A stretch of DNA of 32,000 nt from an uncultured archaeon (GTDB taxonomy: Archaea; Asgardarchaeota; Jordiarchaeia; Jordiarchaeales; Jordiarchaeaceae). Positions 26,649 through 27,947 of the stretch are shown here, piece after piece; position 1 is the stretch's first letter; each line of letters opens with the position of its first letter. The stretch lies in contig CAZECW010000018.1 of assembly GCA_964510585.1 (NCBI GenBank), forward strand, positions 1-32,000, in the 5' to 3' direction. Made by a program: the position numbers and the translations under genes. The notes beneath the pieces were generated by a model. The model was not told where the DNA came from. It saw only the letters and a list, made by a program, of their open reading frames with translations, and did no database searches.

Positions 26649-26821
26649 GCCGGGGTAACCAAGTGGATCACGTTATAGGCGTACAAAAACGGTGCAGATA
26701 CTTACTAGTGTAGTTAGCACAAGCCTGGAGAATATCCTAGTAAGCCTGTGGTCCGAAAGGATCGCGCGAGTTCGAAAGGAAAATATTTATTATTTACCCG
26801 AGTGTCTCGCCCCCGGCGCCA
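26649..26821 (+). tRNA. tRNA-Ser(GGA) with four BHB-type introns (26670-26687, 26698-26722, 26731-26742, 26777-26804); 90 nt mature, encoded CCA
   Basis: Acceptor stem GCCGGGG/CCCCGGC, G73 and CCA; after removing the four segments: D stem ACC/GGU, anticodon arm CAGGC-CUGGAGA-GCCUG, long variable arm, T arm GCGAG-UUCGAAU-CUCGC. Confidence 0.9.
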
Positions 26822-26896
26822 ATAACTACCCTTTTCAGTGGCCGGAACATATTTTGACTTGTTAAAACTAGGTAGGAATAACTGGATTTTGGATGC

Positions 26897-27947
26897 TTAT
26901 TCCTCAGCTTCCTCGCTTCTGTCGTGTTTTTTCCACATAGGAGGGTAGGTTCCCGGCTCCATTAAGACACGGTTTATTTCCACTGCAACCCCGTGGTTTG
27001 AGGTGTACATTTCTTGACTGCTCATTTTTGCTATTCCCAATGCTACAGCTTCATTTTTAAGCGTGAAGATTGAAACTAGATCACCAGCTTTTATTTCGCT
27101 CTCTAGTTTAACTATTCCAGGAGCGGTTAGATTTGCACCGTGACAAAGAGAATCTACGGCAGAGTCTCGTATAAAAATTTTAGGTATATGCTCCAGTGCA
27201 TTTTCCATTGGTTGTATAATTTTTCTTAGGAATGATTCGTCTCCATCTTCCTTCCAGAAATGGTAAGCATCAACGAGGTCGTATAGGTTTGTTATAGTAT
27301 CTTCTTTGAAAGGCCCTGTTCGGGTGCGTCTGAGTTCTCTCATATGGGCGCCACAACCTAAAACCTCGCCGATGTCGTGGCAGAGCTTCCTTATGTAGGT
27401 GCCGGCCTCACAACCAACACGCAGGAGCCCATTTCTACCCTCTACTTCGTTTAGTTCAATATAGTATATTTCCCTAATCCTCACCCTCCTTTTAACCGAG
27501 GAGCGGAGCGGTGGACGCTGATAAATTTGTCCCGCAAACTCGTTTACAACTTCTCTCAATCTACTTTCAGACACATCCCCGTGCAGCCGAATTACACAAA
27601 CATACTCTTTCCCAGCCGGAAGGAGAGCTTGAACTACTTTAGTTGCAGATTCTAAAGCCACAGGAAGCACACCTGTGACTTTGGGATTTCACTGCCTCCT
27701 ATGCTTCTGAAGGAAGCTCTAGTGTCCCAGCGTGGCCTGCCTTCTTAACATTCAAGATTTTTTTGACCCAGCTAACCACTTCATGTGAAGTGGGACCCGG
27801 AGGCTTGTCAATATTGACTATCCCGTTTTTTATATAATCTTCTATTTGACGTTCGTTGGGTGGAGTTCCATACTCCGGATTAGTGACCACGTTAGCCTTC
27901 TGGAGCATCTCTCTTTTCTTGTCGCTGGGTAAAAAACGCTCGACCAT
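26897..27947 (-). CDS. cbf5: H/ACA pseudouridine synthase Cbf5, interrupted by a 31-nt BHB intron (exons 27719-27947 and 26897-27687; 339 aa if spliced)
   Basis: [11 protein letters not shown]; [15 protein letters not shown] restored by splicing; [16 protein letters not shown] and PUA domain. Confidence 0.95.
27688..27718 (-). other. 31-nt canonical BHB intron in cbf5
   Basis: GGGA/UCCC exon helix, CACU/AGUG central helix, AGA and AAA bulges, GCUUCCU/AGGAGGC intron stem. Confidence 0.93.

Follow-up and report, generated by a model that had tools for sequence, protein, structure and literature searches.

Can a locus of 173 nt in which standard search tools detect no tRNA be a single functional tRNA-Ser(GGA) gene interrupted by four introns? 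The locus belongs to a hot-spring metagenome-assembled genome of an Asgard archaeon, of the class Jordiarchaeia (Jordarchaeia) in a 2026 preprint, which is the Freyarchaeia lineage, and it was analysed as part of a window of 32,000 nt, i.e., the whole stretch of DNA to which all positions below refer. An earlier note made from the letters of this window had proposed that the 173 nt reduce to a 90-nt tRNA-Ser(GGA) when four segments are removed, that standard scanners may miss the gene, and that four introns in one tRNA would match or exceed the record. In the unspliced 32-kb window, ARAGORN found no tRNA and Rfam found none at the gathering score; on the locus itself, Rfam returned no tRNA match at E values up to 10, so that the concern about scanners was justified for both ARAGORN and the Rfam tRNA model. 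When the four segments (18, 25, 12 and 28 nt) were taken out in silico, the remaining 90 nt were called tRNA-Ser(gga) by ARAGORN with every stem paired. All 16 combinations of excisions were tried, and removal of all four segments was the sole combination that worked, partial removals giving either nothing or the wrong isotypes.

The spliced 90-mer is a class II cloverleaf with a 7-bp acceptor stem, the D stem ACC/GGU, a 5-bp anticodon stem, a 17-nt variable region with its own 5-bp stem, and a 5-bp T stem. The anticodon loop CUGGAGA (7 nt) places GGA after U33, the T-loop reads UUCGAAU, and G18 G19, the discriminator G73 and an encoded CCA are present. The anticodon GGA, a long variable arm and the discriminator G73 are identity features of archaeal serine tRNAs. 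The exons have a G+C content of 66% and the removed segments one of 31%, with 41.7% for the genome. The arrangement of the parts is given in Table 1. A split or permuted tRNA was ruled out, because the five exons follow one another in order on a single strand inside the 173 nt.

Table 1. Parts of the tRNA-Ser(GGA) locus, with positions in the window.
Feature	Position	Strand	Description
Whole tRNA-Ser(GGA) gene	26649..26821	+	Five exons, four introns, encoded CCA; spliced 90-mer called by ARAGORN; orthologues in 5 genomes of the same genus
Exon 1	26649..26669	+	Acceptor 5' strand, U8, A9, D-stem 5' strand ACC, D-loop G18 G19; end at 26668 or 26669; invariant in the 4 close orthologues
Intron 1 (D-loop, 18 nt)	26670..26687 (alternative 26669-26686)	+	Relaxed BHB, 3/4 central pairs
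Exon 2 (10 nt)	26688..26697	+	D-loop end, D-stem 3' strand GGU, G26, C27-G29
Intron 2 (29/30, 25 nt)	26698..26722	+	GUGC/GCAC, bulges AG|A and AA|G
Exon 3 (8 nt)	26723..26730	+	G30, C31, C32, U33, anticodon GGA at 26727-26729, G37
Intron 3 (canonical 37/38, 12 nt)	26731..26742	+	CUGG/CUAG, bulges AG|A and UA|A
Exon 4 (34 nt)	26743..26776	+	A38, anticodon-stem 3' strand, variable arm GGUCC-GAAA-GGAUC, T-stem 5' strand, T-loop U54-A59
Intron 4 (59/60, 28 nt)	26777..26804	+	UUCG/CGAG, bulges AA|A and UG|U, T stem 5 bp, intron hairpin
Exon 5 (17 nt)	26805..26821	+	U60, T-stem 3' strand, acceptor 3' strand, discriminator G73, CCA at 26819-26821
TTTT run	26832..26835	+	11 nt past CCA, read from the sequence; possible archaeal oligo-T terminator

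To evaluate the splice motifs, every candidate pair of cuts was scored by the published rule, which requires a central helix of 4 bp with a bulge of 3 nt on the 3' side of each strand and places the cut behind the second bulge base. Introns 2, 3 and 4 showed four of four central pairs each, cut after the second bulge base, with the helices and cut sites that the note had given. Their motifs fall into different classes: intron 4 is a full hBHBh', in which the 5-bp T stem serves as the outer helix and a hairpin lies inside the intron, intron 2 is an HBh', and intron 3 an hBH, closed by the loop instead of an h' helix. For intron 1 no helix with four of four pairs exists in the present genome, and no outer helix adjoins it. 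The register UGGA/UACA, which the note had described with one mismatch, has three of four pairs, and so does GUGG/GUAC, one base to the left and equally good. Both registers lead to a 90-mer called Ser(GGA), the sole difference being one D-loop base, C or A. The left border of intron 1 is therefore uncertain by 1 nt, and homology with the relatives described below would slightly favour the GUGG register. Because this motif is weak, excision of intron 1 is predicted from the stronger motifs of its homologues in relatives and from the requirement that the mature tRNA have a normal D-loop.

Four free excisions might trim many sequences to an acceptable tRNA, and the resemblance to tRNA-Ser could then be fortuitous. 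In a brute-force test, in which all BHB-like excisions were made in four orthologues and the products passed to ARAGORN, between 78 and 266 alternative sets were each called Ser(GGA), i.e., acceptance after such excisions is not unique. ARAGORN acceptance is thus unspecific and the in-silico product alone is weak evidence. What decides against a fortuitous resemblance is a set of comparative observations that do not depend on the excision procedure: an indel of exactly 28 nt, the conservation of exons over introns, orthologues in two families, and agreement with the tRNAscan-SE intron borders published for one orthologue. These data, set out below, carry the case for four introns, and with them chance is effectively refuted and scarcely worth further consideration.

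A DNA search of relatives recovered the gene from each of the five other genomes in the genus (G001 to G005; the present genome is G000), and in all six it adjoins cbf5. In G003, G004 and G001 the locus is 95-97% identical to the present one and all four segments are present, intron 3 being 11 nt long in G004 and G001. In the alignment of these four, 1 of 90 exon columns is variable, as against 14 of 83 in the introns and 57 of 434 in the flanks; the difference between exons and introns is significant (Fisher p = 2e-4), although the p-value overstates the support, since the four genomes are close kin. The sole variable exon site, 26751, changes a G.U to an A-U pair in the variable-arm stem, and none of the variable intron sites falls in a strand of a central helix. 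G005 and G002 have the D-loop, 29/30 and 37/38 inserts but an intact T-loop, and the gap that separates them from the other four in the alignment is exactly 28 nt, between A59 and U60. Among the relatives, the helix of intron 2 changes from GUGC/GCAC to GCGC/GCGU; in G005 and G002, U25-A is replaced by C25-G, and this goes together with a change of the D stem from A10-U25 to G10-C25.

For G005, whose 3.6-Mb genome is complete and falls in the same GTDB genus, an independent annotation is available. Its Ser(GGA) gene at 1482398-1482542 has the coordinates of tRNA no. 6 of 'SRVP_Freyarchaeota_curated_circular' in Supplementary Data 4 of PMC11291895, and tRNA genes of G005 are likewise found at other coordinates taken from the table. 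The 29/30 and 37/38 borders given there by tRNAscan-SE are exactly those that follow from the BHB rule. The gene is listed with two introns, the D-loop insert being uncounted (Valentin-Alvarado et al. 2024, PMC11291895); judged from its motifs, the G005 orthologue has three introns versus the two annotated. The omission is of the type described in an October 2026 preprint (10.64898/2026.10.13.758758).

Outside the genus, three sister-family genomes (G006, G007 and G008) have Ser(GGA) genes with inserts at three places, the D-loop, 37/38 and the variable arm; there is none at 29/30 or 59/60, and the T-loops are intact. The variable-arm insert of these genes (L038, L035 and L037, respectively) is about 30-45 nt long and is missing in the present genus. 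G016, from a different Asgard family, carries a 29/30 intron of like architecture with the helix GCGC/GCGC and the bulge AA|G; this site is thus either ancient, with a loss in the sister family, or has been hit repeatedly.

The D-loop insert deserves separate consideration, as the present gene might have only three introns (29/30, 37/38 and 59/60) and retain the 18-nt D-loop segment as an extra hairpin. The central helix has just three of four pairs in G000 and lacks an adjacent outer helix, the segment can fold into a small hairpin of its own, and the curated annotation of G005 (tRNAscan-SE plus R2DT) counted no D-loop intron. In five relatives, however, G15 U16 G18 G19 pairs at all four positions with the insert, the partner strand being CCGC in G005 and G006, CCAC in G002, and CCAU in G007 and G008, i.e., the pairing is preserved through substitutions, and the helix is followed by AA and the cut, with the expected 3-nt bulges. 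The insert otherwise varies freely in sequence between fixed flanks. If it were retained, the D-loop would grow to about 28 nt and an additional arm would stand where G18 G19 and the T-loop meet. In addition, D-arm inserts lie at canonical BHB boundaries far above chance, according to 10.64898/2026.10.13.758758. Because the inserts of the relatives pair at four of four positions, the motif of intron 1 in the present genome is read as a degenerate member of a conserved intron, and we regard retention of the segment as improbable.

The gene might, alternatively, be a decaying or silent pseudogene, with the serine codons UCC/UCU read by another tRNA so far missed in a fragmented assembly. A search for a second tRNA-Ser(GGA), which the earlier note had also suggested, was made by BLAST with the spliced sequence over the genome and matched this locus only. 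ARAGORN (with the intron option) and Rfam RF00005 reported 7-9 tRNA genes in the whole 3.78-Mb, 96%-complete genome, and Ser(GGA) is not among them. Nearly the whole tRNA set of G000 is hidden by multiple or non-canonical introns. A scan for GGA anticodon arms by regular expressions was too noisy and missed the present gene as well, since intron 2 splits the anticodon stem. A second copy may still exist, as most tRNAs of the genome escape standard detection and a gene could be missing from an assembly of 217 contigs that is 96% complete. Against decay, the exons are fixed across four species except for one change that improves a pair, in contrast to the variable introns and flanks; every stem is intact and the conserved tRNA bases are all present. 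For the complete genome of G005, the published table gives no Ser(GGA) locus besides this one. The adjacency to cbf5 is kept in all six genomes of the genus. A pseudogene is therefore very unlikely, less likely even than a retained D-loop insert. Taken together, the comparisons of sequences make it highly probable that this is a single functional tRNA-Ser(GGA) gene with four BHB introns, all of which are predicted to be excised. The locus is present in hot-spring metagenomes, and no RNA data set was listed among its carriers. Logan contigs from four runs showed no spliced joint; two of the runs, labelled metatranscriptomic but probably derived from DNA, contain a related strain with all four segments, and these contigs have no bearing on expression.

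To place the introns in time, we reconstructed a phylogenetic tree of a single gene, Cbf5, from 11 genomes of the order. G000, G001, G003 and G004 group together as a clade (support 92/99), G005 and G002 branch off below it, and the sister family is the outgroup; the order of G002 versus G005 is weakly supported (81/71). The 59/60 intron is confined to the clade of four genomes, so that a single gain is the most parsimonious explanation. On this tree, the D-loop and 37/38 introns would be common to the order, the 29/30 intron is shared by all six genomes of the genus, and the 59/60 intron would have been added in the ancestor of the four-genome clade, together with changes in the exons. The exon changes that accompany the intron convert the T stem from GUGGG/CCCAC to GCGAG/CUCGC and A57 to G, the latter completing the helix UUCG/CGAG. 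It is about an even call, in our judgement, that the 59/60 intron is a young, single and polarisable gain in a hot-spring clade, accompanied by exon changes that complete its helix, and that the gene, whose micro-exons of 10 and 8 nt seem to force ordered splicing, records a series of two, three and four introns. If this is true, the series could be used to test the origin of BHB introns and the co-adaptation of exons.

A search for copies of the four introns elsewhere in the genome, as a sign of transposition, gave only short matches at chance level. The core of intron 4 (window 26781-26795), AAAATATTTATTATT, resembles a motif, AAAACATTTATTATT, that lies upstream of L035, L037 and L038, the Ser(GGA) genes of the sister family, at a distance of about 35-45 nt. 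AAAATATTTATTATT is also similar to many intergenic sites in G000, and the likeness of the two sequences may be promoter-like or an A+T-rich coincidence.

Splicing of such a gene requires a suitable set of enzymes, and a plausible one is encoded in the genome. EndA is represented by two full-length paralogues of 192 and 198 aa, each with an N-terminal and a catalytic C-terminal domain (PF02778, PF01974); they map to the regions G000:C157:27039-27287 and C126:19921-20181. In most Asgard genomes, two EndA paralogues are read as the two-subunit form in 10.64898/2026.10.13.758758, and a broad substrate range of two-subunit EndA is established for Crenarchaeota (PMC5829648). From the two paralogues only, and by analogy, we infer an (alpha-beta)2 architecture with a broad substrate range here as well. 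The ligase RtcB is matched over its full length (578 bits; G000:C58:3702-5036). The match has one in-frame TGA, which could be a selenocysteine codon, an intron or a break.

In the proposed pathway, a precursor of at least 173 nt would be transcribed with four short BHB introns, EndA would cleave past the second base in each 3-nt bulge, and RtcB would ligate five exons, two of them of 10 and 8 nt, to a 90-nt tRNA with encoded CCA. The unconstrained minimum-free-energy fold of the precursor forms the BHB motifs of introns 2 and 4. The helices of these two introns form in the full precursor, but neither the D stem nor the full anticodon stem does, because the central helix of intron 2 takes up G24-C27 and is thereby in competition with both the D stem and the upper end of the anticodon stem. 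When intron 2 is removed in silico, the D stem and the complete anticodon stem form in the intermediate, and intron 3 then lies on a complete anticodon stem. This suggests that the order of splicing is constrained: intron 2 would leave first, the stems would then appear, and they would provide the context for introns 3 and 1. Cutting on both sides of exon 3 before any ligation would leave this exon attached by just two base pairs, and an ordered or coupled pathway therefore seems necessary.

The neighbouring cbf5 (window 26897-27947, minus strand) may itself be interrupted. It is split into an ORF with the DKCLD domain and an ORF with the TruB/PUA domains by a 31-nt segment at about 27683-27713 with the central helix CACU/AGUG, and removal of the segment restores GTL-D-PKVTG across the codon of the catalytic Asp. 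Since an open frame of about 260 aa recurs throughout the 11 genomes of the order, the split may be conserved. A BHB intron in the cbf5 mRNA is known from Crenarchaeota. Such an intron would share its enzyme and cut rule with the present tRNA, although its host is protein-coding.

Other tRNA genes of the genus were also compared. BLAST recovered counterparts in G000 for six of eight published G005 genes, and three of these, Ser-UGA, 'Ser AGA' and Arg-TCT, were read by eye. The published 'Ser AGA' (25.2 bits; L027, G005:C1:1326609-1326851) looks like a tRNA-Cys(GCA), with the loop AUGCAGA on the stem CCGGA/UUCGG and a discriminator U before CCA. Its orthologue at G000:C177:6238-6415 lacks the first D-region insert of G005. 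Likewise, the G000 orthologue (C140:30846-30990) of the four-intron Arg-TCT gene of G005 (L023) lacks the insert between the anticodon and T arms, and the intron content of congeners therefore differs in both directions. A second Ser(UGA)-like 3' half (L040, G005:C1:1598107-1598163, minus strand), comprising the anticodon loop CUUGAGA, a variable arm, a T arm and CCA, is absent from the published tRNA table.

The suggestion that four introns match or exceed the record has been overtaken by the literature. The note had given up to three introns per tRNA, from Thermoproteales such as Thermofilum; this was indeed the maximum per gene stated in the tRNAscan-SE 2.0 paper of 2021, in which Pyrobaculum calidifontis has 71 introns in 46 genes (PMC8450103), but the figure is superseded and the present lineage is Asgard. 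Four-intron tRNAs were published in 2024: a congeneric genome has them for Arg-TCT, Ile2-CAT and Leu-GAG, and Atabeyarchaeia have them for Trp-CCA and Lys-TTT (PMC11291895, Supplementary Data 4); in that study, 92-95% of tRNA genes have introns and over half have several (PMC11291895). The October 2026 preprint recounted 90 Asgard genomes without reference to the motif; it gives 2.2 intervening sequences per gene for these families with a maximum of five in one gene, reports that tRNAscan-SE misses 30% of intervening sequences, mainly in the D-arm, and reconstructs 129 gains (10.64898/2026.10.13.758758).

The four-intron tRNAs of Freyarchaeia and Atabeyarchaeia are accordingly the closest comparison, as they share with the present gene several short non-canonical BHB introns, D-arm inserts that are missed, and repeated lineage-specific gains. 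The nearest single gene is tRNA-Ser(GGA) no. 6 of G005, an orthologue next to cbf5 with D-loop, 29/30 and 37/38 inserts, which differs in having no 59/60 intron and in its GUGGG/CCCAC T stem and A57, where the present gene has GCGAG/CUCGC and G57. A Ser(GGA) with these four positions is absent from the 2024 table (PMC11291895), which is the one that the comparison covered. Thermoproteales such as P. calidifontis resemble the present case in having several non-canonical BHB introns per gene and a two-subunit EndA, and there close introns are removed in order (PMC8450103). They differ in belonging to another phylum and in a maximum of three introns per gene, whereas in the present genome only 7-9 tRNAs are detected by ARAGORN and Rfam.

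The present gene is thus a further case of a published phenomenon of the lineage and leaves the known maximum number of introns in a tRNA gene unchanged. What it adds is modest: an orthologue whose introns were under-counted, the one-base ambiguity of intron 1, a polarised gain at 59/60 with exon changes, and, likely, ordered splicing. It provides independent comparative confirmation that tRNA genes in an Asgard lineage are fragmented enough to escape ARAGORN and Rfam, and that a curated published annotation under-counted the introns of an orthologous gene. The relatives offer a natural series with differing intron sets, one polarised insertion and pairing kept in the splice motifs, and such series help to study the gain of BHB introns, a question left open in 10.64898/2026.10.13.758758.
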